Of a stretch of DNA of 64,000 nt, positions 10,323 through 51,639 are shown piece by piece. The position numbers and the translations under genes were made by a program. How positions within the stretch are numbered: the first letter of the stretch is position 1; every line of letters begins with the position of its first letter. This DNA is from Desulfobulbaceae bacterium. GTDB taxonomy: Bacteria > Desulfobacterota > Desulfobulbia > Desulfobulbales > Desulfurivibrionaceae. The stretch is from contig DOZO01000041.1 of the NCBI GenBank assembly GCA_003517965.1, forward strand, positions 19,526 to 83,525, given 5' to 3'. The notes under the pieces are model-generated. The model had not been told where the DNA came from. It searched no databases and was given only the letters and a program-made list of their open reading frames with translations.

Positions 10323-11321
10323 ATGCTTACTAATTCATCCATCCTCATTACAGGCGGCACCGGTTCTTTCGGCAACACCTTCGTCCCCATGACCCTGGCA
10401 AAATACAACCCCAAGCGGCTGGTTATTTATTCCCGTGACGAGATGAAGCAGTGGGAGATGGCTCAGAAGTTCGAAGGAGACCAGCGGGTAAGCTTCATTA
10501 TTGGCGATGTCCGTGATAAGGATCGTTTGGCGCGGACACTGGATGGCATTGATTATGTGGTGCATGCTGCGGCGACCAAGATTGTGCCGACGGCGGAATA
10601 CAACCCGTTTGAGTGCGTCAAGACCAACATCAACGGGGCGATGAATCTGATCGATGCCTGCATTGACCGTGGTGTCAAGCGCGTGGTTGCCCTGTCTACG
10701 GATAAAGCCAGTAATCCGATCAATCTGTATGGCGCCACCAAGCTGGCTTCCGACAAATTGTTCGTTGCGGGTAATGCCTATGCCGGTACACATAACACCC
10801 GTTTTGCCGTGGTTCGTTATGGCAATGTTATGGGGTCACGGGGATCGGTCATCCCTTTTTTTATGGATTTGGCGCATACGGGTGTTTTGCCCATTACGGA
10901 TACTCGCATGACTCGTTTCATGATCACACTCGAACAAGGCGTCGAACTTGTTTGGCATGCTATTAATGACATGCAGGGTGGCGAGATATATGTCAAAAAA
11001 ATACCTTCCATGACGATTCTGGATATTGCGAATGCTGTCGCGCCGGGTGCTGATCACAAAATCATCGGTATCCGGCCAGGGGAAAAGATTCATGAGCAGA
11101 TGATTGGGGTGGAAGATGCGCCTCATACCTACGAATATGATGATCATTATAAAATACTGCCGATGATTCATAATTGGTCTGCTGATCCTTCAAGAATCAA
11201 GGGCGGCGCTAAGGTTGAAGAAGGTTTTATGTATACCTCGGACAACAACAATAAATGGATGCCAGTCCAGGAGTTGCGGGCATGGATCGAAGCAAATCGC
11301 ATCAAGATCGGTGCGGTCTGA
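10323..11321 (+). CDS. pseB: UDP-GlcNAc 4,6-dehydratase (inverting), PseB
   Basis: ITGGTGSFG, YSRDEMKQ, HAAATKIVP.AEYNP.EC, ALSTDKA.NP.NLYGATKL, RYGNV.GSRGSV, GIRPGEK.HE. Confidence 0.92.
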   Translation: MLTNSSILITGGTGSFGNTFVPMTLAKYNPKRLVIYSRDEMKQWEMAQKFEGDQRVSFIIGDVRDKDRLARTLDGIDYVVHAAATKIVPTAEYNPFECVKTNINGAMNLIDACIDRGVKRVVALSTDKASNPINLYGATKLASDKLFVAGNAYAGTHNTRFAVVRYGNVMGSRGSVIPFFMDLAHTGVLPITDTRMTRFMITLEQGVELVWHAINDMQGGEIYVKKIPSMTILDIANAVAPGADHKIIGIRPGEKIHEQMIGVEDAPHTYEYDDHYKILPMIHNWSADPSRIKGGAKVEEGFMYTSDNNNKWMPVQELRAWIEANRIKIGAV

Positions 11322-13987: not shown

Positions 13988-15160
13988 ATGATCCCTTATG
14001 GAAAACATCATATTGATGAAGAAGATATTCAGGCTGTAGTTGATGTCTTGAGAAGCGGTATTTTGACGCAAGGCCCAGTGGTGGAGGCCTTTGAACAGGC
14101 AGTGGCGCATTATACCGGAGCAAGATATGCGGTTGCGGTAGCAAGCGGCACAGCCGCCCTTCATCTTGCGGCCGTGGCGGCGGGTGTCGGCCCTGGCAGA
14201 TCGCTGGTGACTTCGCCCATTACCTTCGTTGCCAGTGCGAATGCCGCGCTTTATGTTGGCGGGCGGGTGATCTTTGCAGACATCGATCCGGAGACGATCA
14301 ACCTGTCACCGGACAGTCTCAGGAAGGCGCTGGCCGATAATCCGGATGCCCGAGCTGTTATCCCGGTACATTTTGCTGGTTTGCCGTGTGATATGATGGC
14401 CATCAAATTCGCTGCAGATCAAGCTGGGGCAATTGTGATCGAAGATGCCGCTCATGCCCTGGGGGCGACTTATCCAAGTGGAGAGCGGGTCGGCTCATGC
14501 GTTTATTCCCTGATGACGATTTTTTCCTTTCATCCGGTCAAGGCGATTGCCGCAGGTGAGGGAGGGATGATTACCACCAATGACAAGGCCATCTATCGCA
14601 AGCTTCTGCGGTTGCGCAGCCACGGGATCAACAAGCTTGACGATCCGGTTCAGCAGCCGGAGCAGGCGGAATGCGACGGCGTACCCAATCCCTGGTATTA
14701 CGAAATGCAGGAACTCGGGTTCCATTTTCGGATCACCGATTTGCAATGCGGGCTGGCGCTTTCGCAATTCAAGAAACTTGACCGGTTCATTGCACGCCGC
14801 CGCATCTTGACGAAACAATATGATGATGCCTTTGTAGGGATGCGGAATTGTCGTCCCGCCCAGAAAACTGGTCGTGACATGAGCGGACACCATTTATATG
14901 TTCTCCGAATCGATTTTGAAAAACTGGGAAAAAGCCGGGGGCAGTTGATGCGGGAACTCAAGGAGCGGCAGATAGGCAGCCAGGTGCATTACATACCCGT
15001 ACCGGCCCAGCCGCATTACCGCAGGCTTGGTTTCAGGCCCGAAGACTACCCGAACGCCCAACGCTACTATCAGGAGGCGCTGAGTATCCCACTGTTCTAT
15101 GATTTGACCGATGGGCAGCAGGAAACGATTATCTCGGTGGTCAGAGAGTTGGTGGGTTAG
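13988..15160 (+). CDS. pseC: PseC-type DegT/DnrJ sugar aminotransferase
   Basis: MIPYGKH.IDEEDI, LTQGP, SGTAALH, PITFVASAN, IEDAAHALGA, FSFHPVK.I..GEGG, RSHG, QVHYIP. Confidence 0.9.
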   Translation: MIPYGKHHIDEEDIQAVVDVLRSGILTQGPVVEAFEQAVAHYTGARYAVAVASGTAALHLAAVAAGVGPGRSLVTSPITFVASANAALYVGGRVIFADIDPETINLSPDSLRKALADNPDARAVIPVHFAGLPCDMMAIKFAADQAGAIVIEDAAHALGATYPSGERVGSCVYSLMTIFSFHPVKAIAAGEGGMITTNDKAIYRKLLRLRSHGINKLDDPVQQPEQAECDGVPNPWYYEMQELGFHFRITDLQCGLALSQFKKLDRFIARRRILTKQYDDAFVGMRNCRPAQKTGRDMSGHHLYVLRIDFEKLGKSRGQLMRELKERQIGSQVHYIPVPAQPHYRRLGFRPEDYPNAQRYYQEALSIPLFYDLTDGQQETIISVVRELVG

Positions 15161-25591: not shown

Positions 25592-26891
25592 TGCCGGCCA
25601 GAAACTCTGGCAACGCGCCAAGCAAGTCATACCTGGCGGTAATATGTTGCTTTCCAAACGTGCCGAAATGTTTCTGCCTGAGCAGTGGCCCGCCTACTTT
25701 AGCAGGGCCAAGGGGTGCAAAGTTTGGGATTTGGATGGCAATGAGTTCATCGACATGTCTATCATGGGGATCGGCACCAATATTTTGGGCTACGGCCATC
25801 CCGAGGTGGATGAGGCAGTTCGTAAAACCATCGACGCCGGGAATATGTCTACCCTCAACTGCCCTGAAGAGGTTTATCTGGCTGAAAAGCTTATTGAACT
25901 GCATCCATGGGCCGACATGGCTCGTTTGGCCCGTTCGGGTGGCGAGGCCAATGCCATCGCTATTCGCATTGCTCGTGCCGCCACTGGTAAGGACAAGGTC
26001 GCTATCTGTGGTTACCATGGCTGGCACGATTGGTATCTCGCCGCCAATTTAGGCGATGAGAAAAATCTCGCAGGTCACTTGCTGCCGGGCTTGGAGCCTA
26101 ACGGTGTGCCGCTAAACCTGCGTGGTACCGTTTTCCCTTTCGCCTACAACAATTTCGCCGAGTTGGAAGCCTTGGTTATGGCGCACGATATTGGCGTGAT
26201 TAAAATGGAAGTGGCGCGCAACCATGGCCCGCAAGAAAACTTTTTGCACAAGGTGCGCCAGCTTGCTTCCGCGCACGGTATTGTACTGATTTTTGACGAG
26301 TGTACTTCCGGTTTTCGTCAAACCTTTGGCGGACTTCACAAGGAATATGGTGTTGAACCAGACATGGCTATGTTCGGCAAGGCCTTGGGTAATGGCTATG
26401 CTATTACGGCTACCATCGGTCGGCGTGAAATCATGGAAGCCGCGCAGACCACCTTTATCAGTAGTACCTTTTGGACCGAAAGGATTGGCCCGACTGCGGC
26501 GCTGAAGACATTGGAAGTGATGGAACGTGTGAAAGCCTGGGAGCAGATCACCAATGTTGGTCGGGAAATCACTGCGGGTTGGCAAGAGTTGGCGAAAAAA
26601 CATGAACTATCTATTGCTACCAGTGGTCTGTCGGCGCTGACCGGATTTTCATTCGTCAGCCCAAACGCGCTGTTTTACAAAACTCTCATAACGCAGGAAA
26701 TGTTGGGCAAAGGCTATCTTGCCGGTACCAGCGTTTATGTCTGCACTGAGCACACTCCAGATTTGGTGGCAGGCTTCTTTGAAGCTCTCGATCCTGTGTT
26801 TGCACTCATTAAGGAATGTGAACAAGGACGCGATGTGCTGGGCTTGCTCAAAGGACCGGTGTGTCATGCTGGGTTTAAGAGGTTGAATTAA
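25584..26891 (+). CDS. Class III (GSA-aminomutase-like) PLP aminotransferase
   Basis: AKQVIPGG, AKG..VWDLDGN..ID, SGGEAN, GYHGWHDW, LIFDE..SGFR, PD.A.FGKALGNG. Confidence 0.88.
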   Translation: MGNAGQKLWQRAKQVIPGGNMLLSKRAEMFLPEQWPAYFSRAKGCKVWDLDGNEFIDMSIMGIGTNILGYGHPEVDEAVRKTIDAGNMSTLNCPEEVYLAEKLIELHPWADMARLARSGGEANAIAIRIARAATGKDKVAICGYHGWHDWYLAANLGDEKNLAGHLLPGLEPNGVPLNLRGTVFPFAYNNFAELEALVMAHDIGVIKMEVARNHGPQENFLHKVRQLASAHGIVLIFDECTSGFRQTFGGLHKEYGVEPDMAMFGKALGNGYAITATIGRREIMEAAQTTFISSTFWTERIGPTAALKTLEVMERVKAWEQITNVGREITAGWQELAKKHELSIATSGLSALTGFSFVSPNALFYKTLITQEMLGKGYLAGTSVYVCTEHTPDLVAGFFEALDPVFALIKECEQGRDVLGLLKGPVCHAGFKRLN

Positions 26892-27577
26892 TGCCGAAGA
26901 CGGTTCTTGTTGTAGCTGCCCATCCCGATGATGAAGTTCTTGGTTGTGGCGGCGCCATCGCCATGTTGGTTGACCAAGGCGTGATCGTCCATGTTGCTTT
27001 TCTGGCTGATGGGGTTTTTTCCCGTACTCCCGAGCCGGGCGCCCAGTCCGAGGAGGAGCTTCAATTACGTCGTGCGACAGCACAAAAAGCCAACAAAATT
27101 TTAGGCGTTAAATCTGTATCATTTGGTGACTTCCCTGATAACCGAATGGATACCGTAGCTCTGCTTGATATAGTAAAAAGCGTTGAAGTCCTAATTGCCA
27201 AGCACCAACCAGACACGATTTTTACGCACCATGCCGGTGATTTAAACATAGATCACCGTCGTACTCACGAGGCGGTAGTTACGGCTTGCCGCCCACGGCC
27301 TGGCCATCCAGTAAAAACTTTACTCTGCTTTGAAATACCTTCCAGCACCGAATGGCAGGTGCCAGGTTCCGCGCCATTTTTTGCTCCGAACTGGTTTGTG
27401 GATATCTCGGGAACCTTGGATCGAAAAATGGCGGCGCTCAATGCCTATGCCACTGAGTTATGTCCCTGGCCTCATCCGCGATCACTACAGGGTATTGAGC
27501 ATTTGGCCAGGTGGCGCGGTGCAGTTATAGGTGTCGAGGCTGCGGAGGCCTTCATTCTGGGGAGACACTTGTCGTGA
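26891..27577 (+). CDS. PIG-L/LmbE-family N-deacetylase
   Basis: VVAAHPDDEVLG.GG, D.N.DH, S.TEW, PN.FVDI, PHPRS, AEAF. Confidence 0.9.
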   Translation: MPKTVLVVAAHPDDEVLGCGGAIAMLVDQGVIVHVAFLADGVFSRTPEPGAQSEEELQLRRATAQKANKILGVKSVSFGDFPDNRMDTVALLDIVKSVEVLIAKHQPDTIFTHHAGDLNIDHRRTHEAVVTACRPRPGHPVKTLLCFEIPSSTEWQVPGSAPFFAPNWFVDISGTLDRKMAALNAYATELCPWPHPRSLQGIEHLARWRGAVIGVEAAEAFILGRHLS

Positions 27578-29766
27578 AGGTGGTTTTTCGCGTTGATGCC
27601 TCGAATCGCATGGGTACAGGTCACCTCATCCGCTGCCTCACCCTGGCCGAGGCTTTGCGTGATCGCGGCGCGGAAACGCGTTTCATCTGCCGGGCTCATT
27701 CTGGCAACCTGATCGGAATGCTGCAACGGCAAGCCATGCCAGTTATCGGTCTGCCGGCATCTGCGCAGCTCTCAAATGTATATTCCGAGGATTACGCCGC
27801 CTGGCTGGGGGTAACTCAGATTGAAGATGCTGAGCAGAGCATCGAAGCCCTGCAAGGTGATCATGTCGATGTGCTCATTGTTGATCACTATAGTCTCGAT
27901 ATTGATTGGGAGCAAAGGCTGCGCCCGCACACTGACAAAATCATGGTGATCGATGATCTTGTCAACCGACGGCATGACTGTGATCTGTTGTTAAATCAGA
28001 ATTATTCTGCTGAAAGGGAAGATCGTTCCAGGGGATTGGTACCAGAGATTTGTCGATTGTTGTTGGGGCCAAGCTATGCGTTGCTACGGCAGGAATATGC
28101 TGCCTATCGGCGGGTCCTACGCCAGCGGGATGGACTGGTACACCGGGTGTTGGTGTTTTTTGGTGGACCTGACCCCTATAATACTACCGGCCTGGCGCTG
28201 GAGGCGCTCTCCGCGCCTGAGTTCCGGCATTTGGAAGTCGATGTGGTTATTGGGGGCACTAATCCGCATCGTGTCGCGATTGAAAAACAAATATCCATGC
28301 GGCCACGCACCAAGCTGTATGGCCCACGACCGCATTTAGCGGATTTGATGGCTCAAGCTGATCTGGCGATTGGCGCTGGAGGAGCAACAACTTGGGAAAG
28401 AATGTGTTTTGGCCTCCCAAGCTTGGTCATTTCACTTTCAGAAAATCAACGACCAGCTTGTGAAGCGCTCGCCCAAGAGGGGTTGATTTATTATCTCGGA
28501 GAATTCAGTGAGGTTCAGGCCTCGGATCTGGGCTGTGCGCTTAAGGAATGTATTGAAAATCGCGAGCATCAGCTTGCTTGTTCAATTCGAAATCAGCTTT
28601 TGGCGGATGGACTCGGAACCCTACGACTTGCGGAGGTGCTCGACCCAACTCCGACCGCTCAGCTTCGTCTAAGGCTTGCCTGCCATGATGATATGAACCT
28701 TTATTTCAATTGGGCCAATGATCACGAAGTGCGTCGGCAAGCCATCCATTCAGAACCAATTTCTTGGGCGCGGCATCAAGAGTGGTTTACGAATAAGCTT
28801 GCTGATGCGCAGAGTCATCTTTTCACCCTCATGGCCGGATCATTGCCTGTCGGGCAAATCCGTTTTGATCAGGAAGGAGATGAGGCGCGCATCGACTATT
28901 CACTTGATGCCTTGGTACGAGGCCGAGGTTGGGCGACACGCCTGGTGGCAATGGGGGCGGCATATCTGCGGCAAAGCGCACCAATCACCCTTCGTGCTAA
29001 AGTCAAGGCTGGCAATTATGTCTCTCGATCTGTATTTATGCGTCATGGCTTTAAGCAGGCACCATTGCCTCTCTGTGGGGGGGGGGATATGTGCCGTTCT
29101 ATCGCCATCATGTCGGATCGCAACAGCTGGCTGAATGCTTATCTGCCTGAATTGATTCTCAACTGGCTTGATGAGGGTCACCGGGTATTATGGGCACATG
29201 ATATTGAAGATCTTCTCCATGCAGATTTCTGCTTTTATTTGAGTTGTGGACAGATAGTGCCACCTTCCATTTTGAAGCAGTACCTGCATAATTTAGTCGT
29301 TCACGAAAGCGACTTGCCGAGAGGTAAGGGCTGGTCGCCGTTAACTTGGCAAATTCTTGAGGACAAAAATCGAATCCCTGTCACCCTGTTGGAGGCCGCA
29401 GAAAGAGTGGATAGCGGCAGGGTCTATGCCCAGGAATGGCTGGAATTTGAAGGACATGAATTAATCGACGAAATGCGTGAAAGGCAGGCGAAGGCAACCA
29501 TCAAATTGTGTAAACTTTTCGTTGATGGCTACCCGAAGATTCTTGCTGAGGCGCGTGAACAGATTGGGGCAGAGAGTTTTTATCCACATCGGCAACCCGC
29601 GGACAGTCGTTTGACTCCCACCCAATCGATTAAAGCACAGTTTGATCTGTTTCGGGTAGTGGATAATCAACACTATCCTGCATTTTTCGATCTGAATGGT
29701 CAACGCTATTTTTTGCGGATCGATAAGGCACCGCTACCTTCTGGCGAGGAGAATATGCCGACATGA
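27574..29766 (+). CDS. pseG: PseG (UDP-sugar hydrolase) + GNAT (PseH-like) + formyltransferase-like triple fusion
   Basis: FRVDAS..MGTGH..RC.TLA, VDHY, IDD, GAGG.T.WER, NQ (PseG); W.ND..VR...H..WF, GQIRF, RGRG (GNAT); HESDLPRGKGWSP..WQI...VDSG (formyltransferase). Linker LCGGGDM is a G10 tract. Confidence 0.85.
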   Translation: MKVVFRVDASNRMGTGHLIRCLTLAEALRDRGAETRFICRAHSGNLIGMLQRQAMPVIGLPASAQLSNVYSEDYAAWLGVTQIEDAEQSIEALQGDHVDVLIVDHYSLDIDWEQRLRPHTDKIMVIDDLVNRRHDCDLLLNQNYSAEREDRSRGLVPEICRLLLGPSYALLRQEYAAYRRVLRQRDGLVHRVLVFFGGPDPYNTTGLALEALSAPEFRHLEVDVVIGGTNPHRVAIEKQISMRPRTKLYGPRPHLADLMAQADLAIGAGGATTWERMCFGLPSLVISLSENQRPACEALAQEGLIYYLGEFSEVQASDLGCALKECIENREHQLACSIRNQLLADGLGTLRLAEVLDPTPTAQLRLRLACHDDMNLYFNWANDHEVRRQAIHSEPISWARHQEWFTNKLADAQSHLFTLMAGSLPVGQIRFDQEGDEARIDYSLDALVRGRGWATRLVAMGAAYLRQSAPITLRAKVKAGNYVSRSVFMRHGFKQAPLPLCGGGDMCRSIAIMSDRNSWLNAYLPELILNWLDEGHRVLWAHDIEDLLHADFCFYLSCGQIVPPSILKQYLHNLVVHESDLPRGKGWSPLTWQILEDKNRIPVTLLEAAERVDSGRVYAQEWLEFEGHELIDEMRERQAKATIKLCKLFVDGYPKILAEAREQIGAESFYPHRQPADSRLTPTQSIKAQFDLFRVVDNQHYPAFFDLNGQRYFLRIDKAPLPSGEENMPT
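29077..29086 (+). repeat. G10 homopolymer, candidate phase-variation tract
   Basis: CTCTGT-G10-ATATG at the GNAT/formyltransferase domain boundary. Confidence 0.75.
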
Positions 29767-30707
29767 TGGCTGTCCTGTTTACTGGTGGAGGTGGGGCCGG
29801 AAATGAAGCTCTGTGGCGCTTGCTCGGACATCGCTACACGCTCCATTTCGGCGATGCCGACCCAAGGTCAATTGACCCGACGATTCCGGAAGATCGTCGG
29901 CATCAACTGCCGTGGGCTTCCGATCCAGATTTTCTCGGCAAGATGGTCGATTTGTGTCATCGCCTAAACATTGACCTGCTGGTTCCAGGCGTGGATGAGG
30001 AATTGCTCGCACTGGCGCAAGGTGTGGCTGCGCTGATGCCTACTCGCTTGCTTCTACCCCATGCGGACTACGTCAAAACGATGTTGGACAAACTGTCCAT
30101 GATCCGGGCTTTATCAGAAAAGAAAGTGCAAGTGCCGGCCAGCCGGACTTTGGCTGACGATCTTGATGGCCAAAGTTTTCCCTGCATTGCCAAGCCGCGA
30201 AGCGGTAGAGGGTCGCGGGACGTTCGGGTGTTGTCTTCCAGAGCGGAAGCATTGACACTTGGCGTGGCATTGGGGCATTCTGCAGGGATGACATTATTGC
30301 AGGAAAAAATCGAAGGCATCGAATATACAGTCCAGATGGTGGCCGATACCGAATGCCATTTGTGTGCTATCGTGCCGGTCAGAATCAACATCAAACGAGG
30401 GATCACTCTTCGTGCTGAAACCGAAGCGGAACCACGAGTTATCGATGCCTGTCGAGAAATACATCAAGCCGTTCCCACTGGTGGATGCTATAATATTCAA
30501 CTGATGTTGACCCAGGAAGGGGATGTTCTTCCTTTTGAGATCAATCCCCGGATCTCAACCACATTTTGTTTGTCCGTAGCGGCAGGCATCGATCCCATTT
30601 CTTTATTTTTTGATGGTTTCCATACTGACGAAATTTTACCATTCGCTTCTGGTATTCAGTTGCGCCGCCACTGGACAAACCATTTTTTGCAAGGCATTGA
30701 TTTGTAA
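29763..30707 (+). CDS. ATP-grasp domain protein
   Basis: TGGGG, P.VDEEL, DK, KPR.GRGSR, QE.I.G.EYTV, N.Q, FEINPR.S. Confidence 0.85.
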   Translation: MMAVLFTGGGGAGNEALWRLLGHRYTLHFGDADPRSIDPTIPEDRRHQLPWASDPDFLGKMVDLCHRLNIDLLVPGVDEELLALAQGVAALMPTRLLLPHADYVKTMLDKLSMIRALSEKKVQVPASRTLADDLDGQSFPCIAKPRSGRGSRDVRVLSSRAEALTLGVALGHSAGMTLLQEKIEGIEYTVQMVADTECHLCAIVPVRINIKRGITLRAETEAEPRVIDACREIHQAVPTGGCYNIQLMLTQEGDVLPFEINPRISTTFCLSVAAGIDPISLFFDGFHTDEILPFASGIQLRRHWTNHFLQGIDL

Positions 30708-32750: not shown

Positions 32751-33504
32751 AACCTTAGAAGTGATTATGCAGGAAATGGGAAATCTGCTGTTAGAGTGGC
32801 GTTCACACGGCATGACGCATGGCCGCTGGGAAGGCTCGCAGTTGAAGGCGGAGGCCGACCAACGCGCCCATGCCTTTCTCTGCGAGCGTTTGCACCGTTT
32901 TTGGCCTGGTGTTCCTGTGATCAGCGAAGAGGATGCAAGCGCGCACGCTACAGACCGGCCCGATGAATATTGGCTGATCGACCCCATCGATGGGACCGCC
33001 AGCTTCTGCAACGGTTTCGATGGGTTTGTGACGCAAGCGGCTTTTATGCAGAGGTGTAACCCGATTGTTGCGATTGTGCATGCCCCAGCACTTGGTCTGA
33101 CTTATACTGCTTCAGAGCATGGGTTCGCCCAATGCAATCACACGCCAATTTCCACGACTTTATTTGGAATACGCGCTCCGCTCCTGATTGATAACTATCC
33201 AGAGCCGCGCGGGATAGCCCGGACGCTGCTCGATGGCATCGGTTGTGGCGGATATATTGAAAGCGGCAGTATAGGTCTCAAGATTTGTCGGGTTGCTGAT
33301 GGCACGGCCGATTTGTTTGTTAAGGATGTCACCGTGCGCGATTGGGATTTGGCCCCGGCCGATCTAATTCTTGCGCGTGCAGGTGGGATACTTACTACAC
33401 TTGCTGGTGACCTTGTGCCCTATGGCGGAGGATTTGAGAGGTTGGGGTTAATTGCTGCCGCTAACCTGGAGTTAAAGACGTTGACCTTGGAATTTGTTGG
33501 TTGA
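32743..33504 (+). CDS. Inositol monophosphatase / CysQ-family phosphatase
   Basis: AD, ISEE, WLIDPIDGT.SF, GS.GLK.C.VADG.AD, WDLAP. Confidence 0.85.
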   Translation: MLETLEVIMQEMGNLLLEWRSHGMTHGRWEGSQLKAEADQRAHAFLCERLHRFWPGVPVISEEDASAHATDRPDEYWLIDPIDGTASFCNGFDGFVTQAAFMQRCNPIVAIVHAPALGLTYTASEHGFAQCNHTPISTTLFGIRAPLLIDNYPEPRGIARTLLDGIGCGGYIESGSIGLKICRVADGTADLFVKDVTVRDWDLAPADLILARAGGILTTLAGDLVPYGGGFERLGLIAAANLELKTLTLEFVG

Positions 33505-34070
33505 TGCTGGAGACCCCTCTTATTATTCTTACTAAACGTTTTATTCTTAGGCCGCTTGATGAGGGAGATGTCACTATTCGTTATGTTGGCTGGTTTTGCG
33601 AGCAGGTGGTGCAGCAGTATATTAGCGCAGCCACAGCAAGTCCAGATATCGCTGCACTTCGGCAATTTGTGGTAGAGCGTAACGGGCGGGATGATGTAGT
33701 ATTTTTAGGAATTTTTGAGAAAAAGAATGGACTGCACATCGGAAATATTAAGTATGAGCCTGTTGACTCTGTCGCGGGGTATGCTATAGGGGGTATTTTA
33801 ATTGGCGATCCGCACTGGCGAGGTATGGGCGTTGCGGTTGAGGTACTTTGGGCAAGTGCTAACTGGCTGCATAAACATCGTAACATCCGGCAAATTGTTT
33901 TGGGCGTTGACCGTGCTAATACGGCGGCCATTAACGCTTATCGGAAGGTTGGTTTTATCGAGGAATCGACAGCGTTTATACCAACTGTATTGCCAGGGTG
34001 CCTGACAATGGTTTGGCATTTGACTTCATGTGAGGGTGCGAGCTCAATAAAACCAATCACCGGACGATGA
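33504..34070 (+). CDS. GNAT-family N-acyltransferase (RimJ/RimL-like)
   Basis: Y..W, HIGNIK, GILIGD..WRG.G, LGV...N.AAI.AY.KVGF. Confidence 0.8.
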   Translation: MLETPLIILTKRFILRPLDEGDVTIRYVGWFCEQVVQQYISAATASPDIAALRQFVVERNGRDDVVFLGIFEKKNGLHIGNIKYEPVDSVAGYAIGGILIGDPHWRGMGVAVEVLWASANWLHKHRNIRQIVLGVDRANTAAINAYRKVGFIEESTAFIPTVLPGCLTMVWHLTSCEGASSIKPITGR

Positions 34071-47512: not shown

Positions 47513-48744
47513 CGAGCACTATGGCAGATAAATCAGAGACGCAGCAACCACCTGTTGTTCCGCTTGACGCACTGTTGAATGTGCGAGTTGCCCGTGTCTC
47601 GACAGTTGCCTTTTTCGTTGTTTCTCAGTTGAAACGCCAGATAGAATTACTCAGCGCCAGTGGGGCGCAAGTAACAGTGGTGACTGGCGGCGGGTCTGAA
47701 ATGGCCTCGTTGGAGGCTATTCCAGGGATAAATTGTGTCACCATTGATATCCCGCGCTCGATCTCGCCGTGGCGGGATCTGCTGGCTTTGCTTCGGTTGT
47801 ATCTGTTTTTCCGGCGCGGCCATATCGATATCGCGCACTCGACTACTCCCAAGGCCGGTCTGCTTACGGCCATTGCGGCATTCCTGGCAGGTGTACCGAT
47901 ACGGCTGCACACTTTTACCGGGCAGCCGTGGGTGAACATGAAGGGTGTCCGGCGTAGTCTGATCCGTGGGGGTGACAGGCTGATTGGCAAACTTAATACC
48001 CGTTGTTATGCAGACAGTGAAGGACAACGCCAATTTCTTGTCGAACAGGGGATAATTGACGACAAACAACTGTTCGTGATAGGGGCAGGTTCGTTGGCAG
48101 GAGTAGATGGAGAGCGTTTTAATCCGGCACGATTTTCAAACGAGGAGCTGATTGCCACCAGGCAAACGCTTGATATTCCTGAAAACGCACCGGTAATATT
48201 GTTTGTGGGCCGGATCACAGCTGACAAGGGTGTGCATGAATTGCTCGAGGCTTTTCGTGAGATTAAGGCGAGACAGAGCCGCGCGCATCTGGTGTTTGTC
48301 GGACGTTTCGATTCGGACAGCGGGATAAAGGGAGAAATTTGCCAAGATAAAATTGACAGCATTAGGGATACCCATATCGTTGGTCATACCGAATGTCCCG
48401 AGGCATATATGGCTATCGCGGATATCCTGTGCCTGCCAAGCTATCGCGAGGGATTTGGGACGGTTGTCATTGAGGCCGCAGCAATGGAGGTGCCGACGGT
48501 TGGCTCGGATATTTATGGTTTGGCTGATGCGGTGGTAAATGGTGAAACGGGAATCCTGGTGCCTCCGCGAGATTCGGCGGCGCTGGCAAGGGCGATGTCA
48601 ATATTGCTGGCCGATGAGGAACAGCGAGTGAAAATGGGGTGTGCTGCCAGACAAAGGAGCAGAATGCTTTTTGATGCAAATCTGATAAACGGGCAACTGA
48701 TTGAGGAATATGGCAATTTTTTCTGTAGCGTGGGCAAGCCGTGA
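47509..48744 (+). CDS. Glycosyltransferase family 4
   Basis: HS.TPKAGL, HTFTG, G.GS..GVD, FVGR...DKG, LPSYREGFG.V.IEAAA, GL.DAV..GETG. Confidence 0.92.
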   Translation: MTSTMADKSETQQPPVVPLDALLNVRVARVSTVAFFVVSQLKRQIELLSASGAQVTVVTGGGSEMASLEAIPGINCVTIDIPRSISPWRDLLALLRLYLFFRRGHIDIAHSTTPKAGLLTAIAAFLAGVPIRLHTFTGQPWVNMKGVRRSLIRGGDRLIGKLNTRCYADSEGQRQFLVEQGIIDDKQLFVIGAGSLAGVDGERFNPARFSNEELIATRQTLDIPENAPVILFVGRITADKGVHELLEAFREIKARQSRAHLVFVGRFDSDSGIKGEICQDKIDSIRDTHIVGHTECPEAYMAIADILCLPSYREGFGTVVIEAAAMEVPTVGSDIYGLADAVVNGETGILVPPRDSAALARAMSILLADEEQRVKMGCAARQRSRMLFDANLINGQLIEEYGNFFCSVGKP

Positions 48745-51639
48745 TTTCCAGAACTAAGCGTCTTGTGAGAAATGCCTCATTATTGAGTAAAGAATCTTTG
48801 CAGACACGTTATCTCTGGATATTTGCCTTTTGTTTCGCGACGGTTTCCTCGCTACTGTTCCAGAAATTTATGCTGCCGCTACTGCCGTCCATACATGCAG
48901 GTTCCGGCTTGCTTATGAATGACGCGGAGTACTACCATAAATCTGCGCTGCTTATTGCGGAGAATATTCGCGGGCATGGCTGGTCGGCATGGTCGATTTG
49001 GTCGGTACAAACCAATACGGGGGGTAATGTAGCCGTTCTTGCCGCGCTATATGCCATTTTTCAGGTAGACCCTGCCCTGGTTATCCCGGTTAACGCCTTT
49101 TTCCAGGCAAGCAGCGCTTTTTTGCTTCTCCTTATTGGGCGTGAATTGTGGCCCGGTCGGGCAGGCAATATTGCCGGGTTGGTCGTTGCGGTGCTTTTTG
49201 TAGTCTTTCCCTCATCGCTCAGCTGGTACAGTCAACCGCTTAAGGATTGTTACGTCATCACCGGTATGCTGCTGATTCTCTATACCTGGCTCAAGGCGCT
49301 TCATTCCTTGCCAGAGAAAGGCAGTCTGGCGGCGCTTCTTGCATGGATGTGGTTGGGCATCCTGCTGGTTGCCTTTGTTAAACTGTATTATCTCAAGCTG
49401 TTGCTTGTTGTTGCGGGAATGACTGCCTGTCTTGTGGCGGGTCATTTTCTGCGGGTGAAACATCCTCAACGTTACCGCGTTTTGTTTTTTTACTTCGTTG
49501 CTGTTTTTCTCATAGCCATAACATTGCAAATTATGCTCCCTTTTGTGAAGGAGCATAGCGAGGGGTATGCCGTATGGACCCCTGCTGTTATTGACACTAC
49601 GCAAGCGTGGCGATGGCAGGAATCACCCTGGCTGCCAGATACCCTGGAAAGATATTGGGAGACAGTAGCGAAAACCCGTGCTGGCATGATAGAGCACAAT
49701 TATCGCGTTAGTGCCGGCTCGATTATCGATGCAGAAAGAGCGCCGCAGTCAGTTTCTGAGATACTTCTGTATTTGCCGCGCGCCCTGCAGATCGCCTTGT
49801 TTGCGCCATTCCCAGATACATGGTTACAGAAGCCCAGCTTGGTTAGGTTTATCGGCGTATGCGAAACGGTGCTCTGGTATTGCATCTTTCCCGGCCTGTT
49901 GTTCGCGTTGTATTACCGGCGCACACTTGCGATGGCGGTAACCTTGTTGTTTGCCGTTTTTTTTATGACGGTATTCAGCTTTGTGACCCCAAACGTCGGC
50001 TCTTTATATCGTTACCGGTATGTCTATGAATTTATGTTGATGGTTATCGCCATTGGTGGTTGGGTTCAGTTTTTTTTGAATCATCCGGGCAAAAAAAAAA
50101 GACGCGCATCAGAAGCCTGCCCGGAGGCCTTCGCTTTGGCAGAGAGCAATAATCTGGTTCAGCACAGAGACACAAAGAAAAATCTTATCAGTGTTGCTGC
50201 TACGGTTTCTTTGCTGACACTGATCGGGGCACTGGGTTTTTTTGCCCGCGATCTCTTTATGATCCGTTGGTTTGGCGCGGGTAATGAGATGGATAATTTT
50301 TGTCTCGGTGCTTTCCATCCCGGCCGGAACGGCAATGACCCCGGTATTTTCTGTATTACAGAATGTTTCCGATCGGTTGACACAGGCAAGAGTTATCGCT
50401 TCAGCAGCGCTTTTTTTGTCGCTGCTGCTTGCCTTAGTCTCTATCCTTTTGTATTTTCTGGCGCCCTATCTATTTTCGGCGTTGAGCTGGCATTATAGTG
50501 ATGAAAAGATGGCAGTGATTCTTAAGATCATGAATATTTATTTGGTGATTCTGCTGCTCAGTGGTTTGGTAGTTACTGCCAATGCCATTCTCAATACCGA
50601 GGGGATATTGATATTTCCGACGGTGGCACAATTGGCAGTGCCGGTTGTGGTATTTATGGCACTGTTAATGTTTGGTGCGGCGCATGGGATCAATGCTGCT
50701 GCTTATGGCATGTTGGCTGGGCAAATCGTGAACCTTGTTCTGGTTGTTTATGCACTCAGGCGATGGGTATCTTTACCGTTGCTCCGGCCGGACATCTCGA
50801 TGGCGCTCCAGCAGCTACCTTTTTATCAGTATTTTATTCTTGTGGCGGCCTCACTGTCGGCTGCGCTGGTTGTCCCGGTAGCAAATGCAATAGCGGCTAA
50901 GTTGCCAGTTGGTAGTATTGCTATCATTGGTTTGGGTTTGAAGGTTGTTTTGCTGGTCACGGGCGTACTCGGGATGGGCATGACAACGGTGTTGTTACCG
51001 TATTTTTCCAATCTGGTGGCAAAATTTAATCATCATCAGGCAAGATCTGATCTGTCTTTTTTTCTATTGTTGGTAACCTTGCTCAGTGTTCCGGCAGCAC
51101 TTGTCCTGACAGTGCTGGCAGAATTCGTAACTGTTGCAGTGTTTGCAAACAGTGCGCTAAGCGAAGTAGACATACATAATGTGGTAAGAGTGATTCAATA
51201 CGGGGTGATCCAGTTGCCCTTTTTCACATGTGGGCTGGTGGCCATTAAATTCATCACCGCCTATCAGCGCACCTGGATTATCCTGCTGTCATCGCTGGTG
51301 GGTCTGGTGCTGACCGTTATTTTGGGCGTGTTTCTCGCAAAATTATTCGGGGTTGGCGGCATTTCCCTGGCCATGACATTATCGATGGCGGTTTCAGCGG
51401 CAATTCTGGTTTCTTATGCAAACTACCTCAAACATTTACCGGTTTCTGATAGTGTATTTATTGTGTTTAACTGGATTCTCTTTATTACCCTTTTTATTTG
51501 CCTGCATTATCGTGTGTATGTAGCAGCGGTAATTTCCGGAAGCGCATATCTTCTCCTGGTGGCAGGCAACTGGCATGCGATGATTGTTCATGCATACGGA
51601 GGTAAAATACCCCTTCGATATCGCTATAAAGTGGGTTGA
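48741..51639 (+). pseudogene. Polytopic membrane protein (Wzy/GT-C-like) fused to a MurJ/MOP flippase, frameshifted near 50295
   Basis: ORF1 (48741-50498) has D...Y, LKD and N.G.L.RYR motifs, then a MurJ N-terminus (LG..RD......FGAG.EMD). The MurJ body continues in the +1 frame (ORF 50272-51639: VSVLSIPAG.A..P..., LLPYFS). Confidence 0.7.

Follow-up and report, generated by a model that had tools for sequence, protein, structure and literature searches.

The fused gene and its surroundings

The window (the whole stretch of 64,000 nucleotides from a Desulfobulbaceae bacterium that was analysed here) contains a gene in which a PseG-type UDP-sugar hydrolase, a GNAT acetyltransferase and a formyltransferase-fold domain are joined in one protein (Table 1). 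Domain profiles match residues 1–298 (PseG), 364–494 (GNAT) and 548–641 (Formyl_trans_N). The GNAT core of the fusion terminates at a conserved GF and lacks its last strand, and the reading frame then crosses a tract of ten guanines as LCGGGDMCRS. In the in-frame reading of the stretch behind the tract, SIAIM (29098–29112) forms strand 1 of the formyltransferase; in the frame of G8 or G11 the same stretch gives YVPFYR, the predicted last strand of the GNAT domain. The proline of this hidden strand is found in the window strain, and its relatives have serine (YVSFYR). An earlier note on this DNA had given the tract in frame, the stops at 29134 (G9) and 29150 (G11), the ATG at 29089, a PIG-L gene upstream and an ATP-grasp gene downstream; the frame features were reproduced from the sequence, and both neighbours were identified by domain profiles.

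Table 1 Features of the fused gene and of its neighbours in the window.
Feature	Position	Strand	Basis
PseC aminotransferase, maker of the amine for acylation	13988..15160	+	TIGR03588, 482.1 bits (cut-off 423.5)
PIG-L family de-N-acetylase; its stop overlaps the fusion start	26891..27577	+	Domain profile
PseG–GNAT–formyltransferase fusion ORF, 730 aa, fused (G10) state	27574..29766	+	ORF reading and domain profiles
PseG UDP-sugar hydrolase domain, aa 1–359	27574..28650	+	TIGR03590 above cut-off; 3HBN fold match
RimJ/L-type GNAT acetyltransferase core, aa 364–494, in PseH position	28663..29055	+	PF13302, 47.9 bits; models
G10 tract	29077..29086	+	G10, G11 and G8 in three related strains
Doubly read stretch after the tract	29087..29112	+	Two frames: formyltransferase strand 1 / predicted last GNAT strand
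In-frame ATG, private to the window strain	29089..29091	+	ACG in 4/4 related strains
Formyltransferase-fold domain	29095..29763	+	Formyl_trans_N; fold match; His577/Asp613 invariant
TGA met with G9/G12	29132..29134	+	Frame reading
TGA met with G8/G11, giving a product of 524–525 aa	29148..29150	+	Natural counterparts P0180 and P0338
ATP-grasp gene	29763..30707	+	Domain profile

The tract is the longest G/C run within the window. The 2.52-Mb genome has 32 G/C runs of 8 bases, 13 of 9, three of 10 and one of 15 that adjoins an N gap, so that a run of ten is rare in it; a tail of long G runs like that of Campylobacter is absent, and MutS is encoded. An assembly slip was ruled out by contigs of two sequencing runs that may have been the source of this DNA (X1 and X3) and by the contig of a different strain (X7), all of which span the tract without an indel. 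An assembly error is also contradicted by the homologues: a search returned 485 matches, and among the 120 listed, 102 are fusions of at least 650 residues with a located junction. The tract is real and no artefact.

The PseG assignment is firm at the profile level (TIGR03590, 299.6 bits against a cut-off of 153.55), and the fold search with the model of a natural short form, P0180, gave C. jejuni PseG (3HBN) as the top match (Z 29.1, rmsd 2.7, 278 residues aligned). The GNAT domain failed the cut-off of the PseH family (TIGR03585, 21.6 against 93.1 bits); a profile of the short forms matched C. jejuni PseH (4XPK) only with an E value of 0.00065, and the domain resides in a cluster of PseB, PseC, PseG and NeuB genes. 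The formyltransferase exceeds the cut-off of Formyl_trans_N (PF00551, 30.6 against 26.1 bits), and its His577 and Asp613 are invariant in 56 alignment rows. In the NxH motif of this fold, the Asn two positions ahead of the His has a catalytic role. This position has Asn in PseJ, VioF and Fmt and is replaced here by an invariant valine, V575. The sequence match to PseJ is weak (E 1e-4), and the closest solved sequence, 1ZGH, likewise has no Asn in the motif.

Around the fusion extends a long cluster for surface glycans, comprising PseC, two PseB-like, three NeuB-like, PIG-L and ATP-grasp genes. PIG-L often adjoins the fusion family in related loci; the ATP-grasp gene is not a fixed partner, since of the 35 loci mapped L041 and L043 alone have it next to the family. 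Taken as a whole, the glycan cluster is very large (positions 10323–45524 of the window). Its genes include three NeuB-like synthases, three cytidylyltransferases, two PseB-like dehydratases, NeuC and a gene like UDP-sulfoquinovose synthase. Judged from its gene content, the cluster probably leads to several nonulosonic acids. It also holds a second GNAT gene (33501–34070), which could acetylate independently.

Length variation and recurrence of the repeat

The interval 28900–29300 (401 bases) was compared with contigs of four further sequencing runs (X7, X9, X10, and X12); the best-matching runs are groundwater metagenomes. Two named proteins that cluster with the LpxC of the window carry the label Desulfurivibrionaceae. 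The tract is G10 in X7, G11 in X10 (depth 44.7) and G8 in X12 (depth 16.1). These three bridging contigs are at 93–94% nucleotide identity with 19–26 substitutions each, and the tract changes are the sole indels in the 401 bases. The X9 contig stops at the tract with low depth and X5 has no coverage there, and both were left outside the length comparison. The length is thus not invariant among close strains; the earlier note had proposed to count tract lengths in raw or amplicon reads. One length was found per sample, in assembled contigs, which cannot reveal mixtures; as no sample gave two lengths, the changes may represent slow divergence of strains. G8 and G11 yield one and the same shifted frame, whose product corresponds to the natural proteins P0180 (524 residues) and P0338 (525 residues). 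G8 and G11 are the shifted lengths seen in the window lineage, and G9 is not among its observed lengths.

The fusion is distributed widely and patchily, with source names that include Sulfuricella, Nitrospirota, Anaerolineales, Baaleninema, and Methanospirillum. Twenty-three loci had both DNA and the formyltransferase start in place, namely the window, one from a scan of species genomes, one viral contig, and 20 others. A G or C run of at least 7 bases lies at the junction in 11 of the 23 (window included), compared with 0 of 610 other 72-base windows in the same genes. The remaining junctions comprise two with G6, one with (AC)9 (L110), one with (CCAACAA)4 (L092) and eight that are repeat-free. 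No repeat is present in the one PseG-formyltransferase locus from the viral contigs (L116), and the tract is absent from the one fusion that the species-genome scan gave (L031). Five of the 23 loci are out of frame, and all five have a repeat. At GNAT ends that have no formyltransferase in place, a run of at least 7 occurs in 3 of 90, each then followed by a stub of the formyltransferase first strand. Searches of plasmids and of 100 genomes of relatives, 400 of the phylum and 400 of the class (overlapping samples) found no intact fusion.

As in a contingency locus, a repeat in the coding region sets the frame, its length varies between flanks without indels, and repeats are enriched at the site. 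A tract that varies among close strains and recurs at the same joint in many unrelated microbes is likely a built-in switch, and the presence of four kinds of repeat at a single joint suggests that mutability has been selected more than once. A role of the repeat as a selected frame switch is, in our view, highly probable. The earlier note had proposed to check whether homologues keep a G tract at this boundary and are variably split; across lineages, G or C runs are kept there in the 11 loci above, and fused and frameshifted members occur together in 9 of 29 protein clusters.

At two loci a longer GNAT of another kind is joined by the repeat to the same formyltransferase: (CCAACAA)4 at approximately 3310–3350 of L092 and C10 at approximately 6120–6135 of L063. 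These are independent versions of the switch. The longer GNAT ahead of the repeat is seemingly complete in both states, so that a choice between two enzymes is not universal; L063 and L092 seem to switch the formyltransferase alone.

A different partner is found in a genome of the same genus (L168:2496–4954; also L006), where PseG-GNAT stops after a C8 tract. The shifted frame encodes the first strand and helix of the formyltransferase and continues free of stops into a SAM methyltransferase, so that one extra C would give a PseG-GNAT-methyltransferase; the methyltransferase may have its own GTG start.

Long and short forms and the doubly read stretch

Long members and linker-shifted or frameshifted members occur together in the 9 mixed clusters (90% identity). 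These include a Limnospira/Arthrospira cluster, with P0367 long and P0372, P0375, P0378, and P0380 short; a Phormidium cluster also has both forms. In a FastTree phylogeny of 206 PseG domains, the long/short state changes 35 times against a shuffled mean of 68.5. Kin are alike in form, yet the state flips often.

The short forms carry a tail from the shifted frame. For 40 of 105 short homologues, the tail back-translates to a shifted-frame formyltransferase start with a score beyond the 99th percentile of 525 shuffles; 30 of these surpass even the best shuffle, 15 in the +1 and 15 in the −1 frame. Frame use sorts by clade: the G-tract RSIA clades use +1 (xSFYR), and the mostly C-tract LSLA clade uses −1 (VFRLP). 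The third frame is rare but present (L056, P0369, and probably P0289), P0369 coming from a record in which the gene is called in several pieces. Short forms whose tract is broken, reading GEGY or GRGY, retain the tail. By eye, the shifted tails look like the natural C-termini of relatives that are not fused, as when VVYQRVL-stop in L059 is set beside VTVYQRTL-stop in L070; a profile of 75 non-fused GNATs scored both shifted tails within approximately 2 bits and preferred neither. In six of the seven G-tract loci with Ser in formyltransferase strand 1, this Ser is TCT, which reads as Tyr in the +1 frame (the seventh is of the −1 type), compared with 11 of 73 other Ser codons in the same six domains, a post hoc count on few loci. 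T-rich codons tend to remain hydrophobic in shifted frames anyway. The two out-of-frame states are not equivalent; the short form is probably no null, and its out-of-frame tail is probably functional.

AlphaFold2 models of the natural short and fused forms (mean pLDDT 90.1 and 90.0) were compared as secondary-structure strings with block confidence, a reading that does not extend to strand pairing. In the short-form model, the strand at 472–478 has its full length and the shifted tail forms a strand at 505–510 (block pLDDT 81). In the fused model, the former strand is cut to 472–475, residues 491–508 are unstructured (pLDDT below 50 at 498–505), and 509–513 form the first strand of the formyltransferase. 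The match lists of the fold searches were filled by the PseG domain. In the available part of the description of H. pylori PseH, the order of the sheet is given as 01234576 (PMC4363471), which places the last strand inside the sheet. The models thus predict an acetyltransferase without its last strand in the fused form.

If the GNAT domain is useful only in the short form, it should decay in fusions that are unable to switch. Among the matches listed, Asn481 is retained in all 97 short forms and in all 35 fusions with GGG, PPP, or THTH linkers, compared with 12 of 20 fusions with GG or PP linkers and 19 of 47 with neither; the linker peptide serves here as a proxy for the DNA repeat and related sequences are not independent, so that p-values for this comparison and for the enrichment at the junctions are overstated. 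The ratio of GNAT to PseG identity to the nearest short form is 0.89 (GGG/PPP/THTH), 0.91 (GG/PP), and 0.72 (neither). In some repeat-less fusions (P0091, P0117), little or nothing of the GNAT domain is left.

Two groups of loci depart from these forms. In L055, L067, L074, and L078, a GNAT with a shifted-frame tail and a stub of the old formyltransferase are followed by a different stand-alone formyltransferase and PIG-L; here the switch is lost and the enzyme replaced. P0161, P0165, P0167, P0170, P0171, and P0173 are stand-alone formyltransferases of 223 residues whose initial Met lies a few positions ahead of the Gly run. They may hark back to overlapping genes from which the fusion arose, or mark a lineage in which the shifted state is truly split.

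A proposed acetyl/formyl switch and its alternatives

In the established pathway, the UDP-sugar receives its amine from PseC and is normally acetylated there by PseH, and PseG takes off the UDP; the source of this account also names PseJ as the formyltransferase of the Pse5Ac7Fo pathway and shows that PseF accepts both sugars (PMC11040635). The locus combines a tract whose length varies between strains, its recurrence at the joint, and the natural occurrence of long and short proteins. From these observations, an either/or switch between N-acetyl and N-formyl on a pseudaminic-acid-like sugar, driven by slipped-strand mispairing, is the reading that we consider probable. Slippage in the tract would shift the frame at the joint of GNAT and formyltransferase. 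The G10 state would make PseG with the predicted formyltransferase and an acetyltransferase whose last strand is predicted to be missing, presumably along with its activity; G8 or G11 would make PseG with a predicted complete acetyltransferase, and the formyltransferase would be gone. The 25 bases after the tract would serve twice, as formyltransferase strand 1 in one frame and as the last GNAT strand in the other. Both enzymes are predicted to act on the PseC-made amine of the UDP-sugar before release by PseG, and acylation at that step would give an N-formyl or N-acetyl pseudaminic-acid-like sugar in an LPS-type glycan. PIG-L may set free the second amine of the sugar, in line with a proposal made for a deacetylase-formyltransferase pair of Ca. 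Kuenenia. The third frame, reached here with G9, probably gives little or no function. Within a clone, the switching would be reversible.

Plain on/off phase variation of the formyltransferase appears unlikely, although it is compatible with all of the repeat and length-variation data. The GNAT would then be active in both states, with an incidental tail, and the fused state would give formyl or a competitive formyl/acetyl mix. The indifference of the tail profile to frame and the seemingly complete GNAT ahead of the repeat in L063 and L092 agree with this, and the decay of GNAT in repeat-less fusions could stem from its being out-competed rather than unfolded. It does not anticipate that each clade mainly uses one of the two out-of-frame states, that short forms with broken tracts preserve the tail, or that the extra strand is formed in the short model only.

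The earlier note had framed the switch as fused versus split enzyme. For both activities to persist, translation of a separate formyltransferase would start after slippage at the ATG that follows the tract, the G run acting as ribosome-binding site. That ATG is in frame, and seven stand-alone formyltransferases of 223 residues in one cluster start with Met just ahead of the Gly run, as P0357 is also called. However, the codon at 29089 is ACG in X7, X9, X10, and X12, and most formyltransferase pieces called behind frameshifted alleles have no first strand, their match to the profile starting no earlier than column 13, which makes this arrangement very unlikely. What stands of that proposal is a slippage-prone repeat that is conserved at the boundary, varies in length among strains, and takes away the formyltransferase but not PseG-GNAT, for which acetyl/formyl is the best reading.

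Even less likely is slippage of RNA polymerase or the ribosome at the tract, by which one allele would give both proteins and a mixed glycan in a ratio tuned by the DNA length. This would account for the conservation of GNAT in tract-bearing fusions, and G10 formally holds a slippery heptamer; against it, the C runs, (AC)9 and the 7-base repeat at the same joint are typical of slippage at the DNA level, and short forms with broken tracts persist. An ordinary Gly/Pro linker, with the short forms as homopolymer sequencing errors or neutral pseudogenes, is scarcely credible and already largely refuted: Gly/Pro richness is common in linkers, the runs have no recorded sequencing platform, and the third-frame case P0369 comes from a fragmented record, but the enrichment at the junctions (11/23 against 0/610) with four repeat types, the depth of the G11 and G8 contigs, the sorting of frames by clade and the full conservation of GNAT in short forms all oppose it.

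The acetyl/formyl switch has partial parallels. Among them, NgoAV-type hsdS of Neisseria gonorrhoeae carries a poly-G between two target-recognition domains, and the long and short proteins are both functional (PMC7383803, in the part available). The likeness lies in an inter-domain repeat within one gene that gives a long or a short protein with different outputs; in that system the output is the specificity of DNA methylation and here it would be glycan acylation, and the short HsdS acquires its function through dimerisation. In the present gene, a structural strand donated by the shifted frame is predicted to let each state complete one enzyme. The window gene is not a specificity subunit of Type I restriction-modification; its domains are PseG, GNAT, and formyltransferase. 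In Campylobacter, cj1295, maf1/maf7 and a C. fetus gene with a formyltransferase domain and G9–10 are listed, in the available section of PMC6321876, as phase-variable by poly-G. They share slippage in surface-glycan modification, pseudaminic acid included, and belong to host-associated bacteria; here the repeat, which arose in four types, lies inside a three-domain core pathway enzyme, and it is found in free-living bacteria as well as in proteins labelled Methanospirillum.

Aeromonas caviae FlmD joins a hydrolase and a RimL-like acetyltransferase in one PseG-PseH fusion (PMC7874193), a layout equal to that of the short form, and the part of that source available describes neither a formyltransferase nor a switch for it. 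The GNAT here scores far below the PseH cut-off. PseJ, VioF, WbkC, and ArnA have in common the formyltransferase fold and the His/Asp motif; unlike PseJ and other sugar N-formyltransferases, the enzyme here has Val for the NxH Asn, matches PseJ weakly, and is fused and probably switchable. The nonulosonic acid cluster of Ca. Kuenenia stuttgartiensis has the same deacetylase/formyltransferase gene pair and is linked with a sugar in which one amine is free and the other formylated (bioRxiv 10.64898/2026.04.20.719630); as far as the available part of this source goes, that cluster is of the legionaminic type, the link from gene to modification is inferred there, and neither a fusion nor a repeat is mentioned. 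Literature searches covering open-access text found no published account of the present switch.

Most known cases of repeat-driven glycan phase variation are on/off switches of host-associated bacteria. The present one concerns groundwater, sediment, and cyanobacterial lineages and archaeal-labelled proteins, lies inside a core pathway enzyme, and each state seems to complete a different enzyme. The acetyl/formyl switch predicts variants of a surface sugar, plausibly a phage-receptor switch, and would account for the annotation of this family as proteins of 520 and 720 residues or as broken genes. We regard as evenly poised the wider claim that this is a widespread and repeatedly evolved shared-strand switch, in which a stretch selected in two frames lets one slip exchange mutually exclusive acetyl and formyl chemistries on the same amine, in free-living bacteria and probably archaea, and whose cassette may be reused for other enzymes, as with the methyltransferase of the same-genus genome. 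Elsewhere in the window (48741–51639), a membrane-protein ORF passes an A10 run (50091–50100) into the apparent start of a MurJ-type flippase, the remainder of which lies in another frame from approximately 50290, which may represent either another slippage site or a gene with a frameshift.
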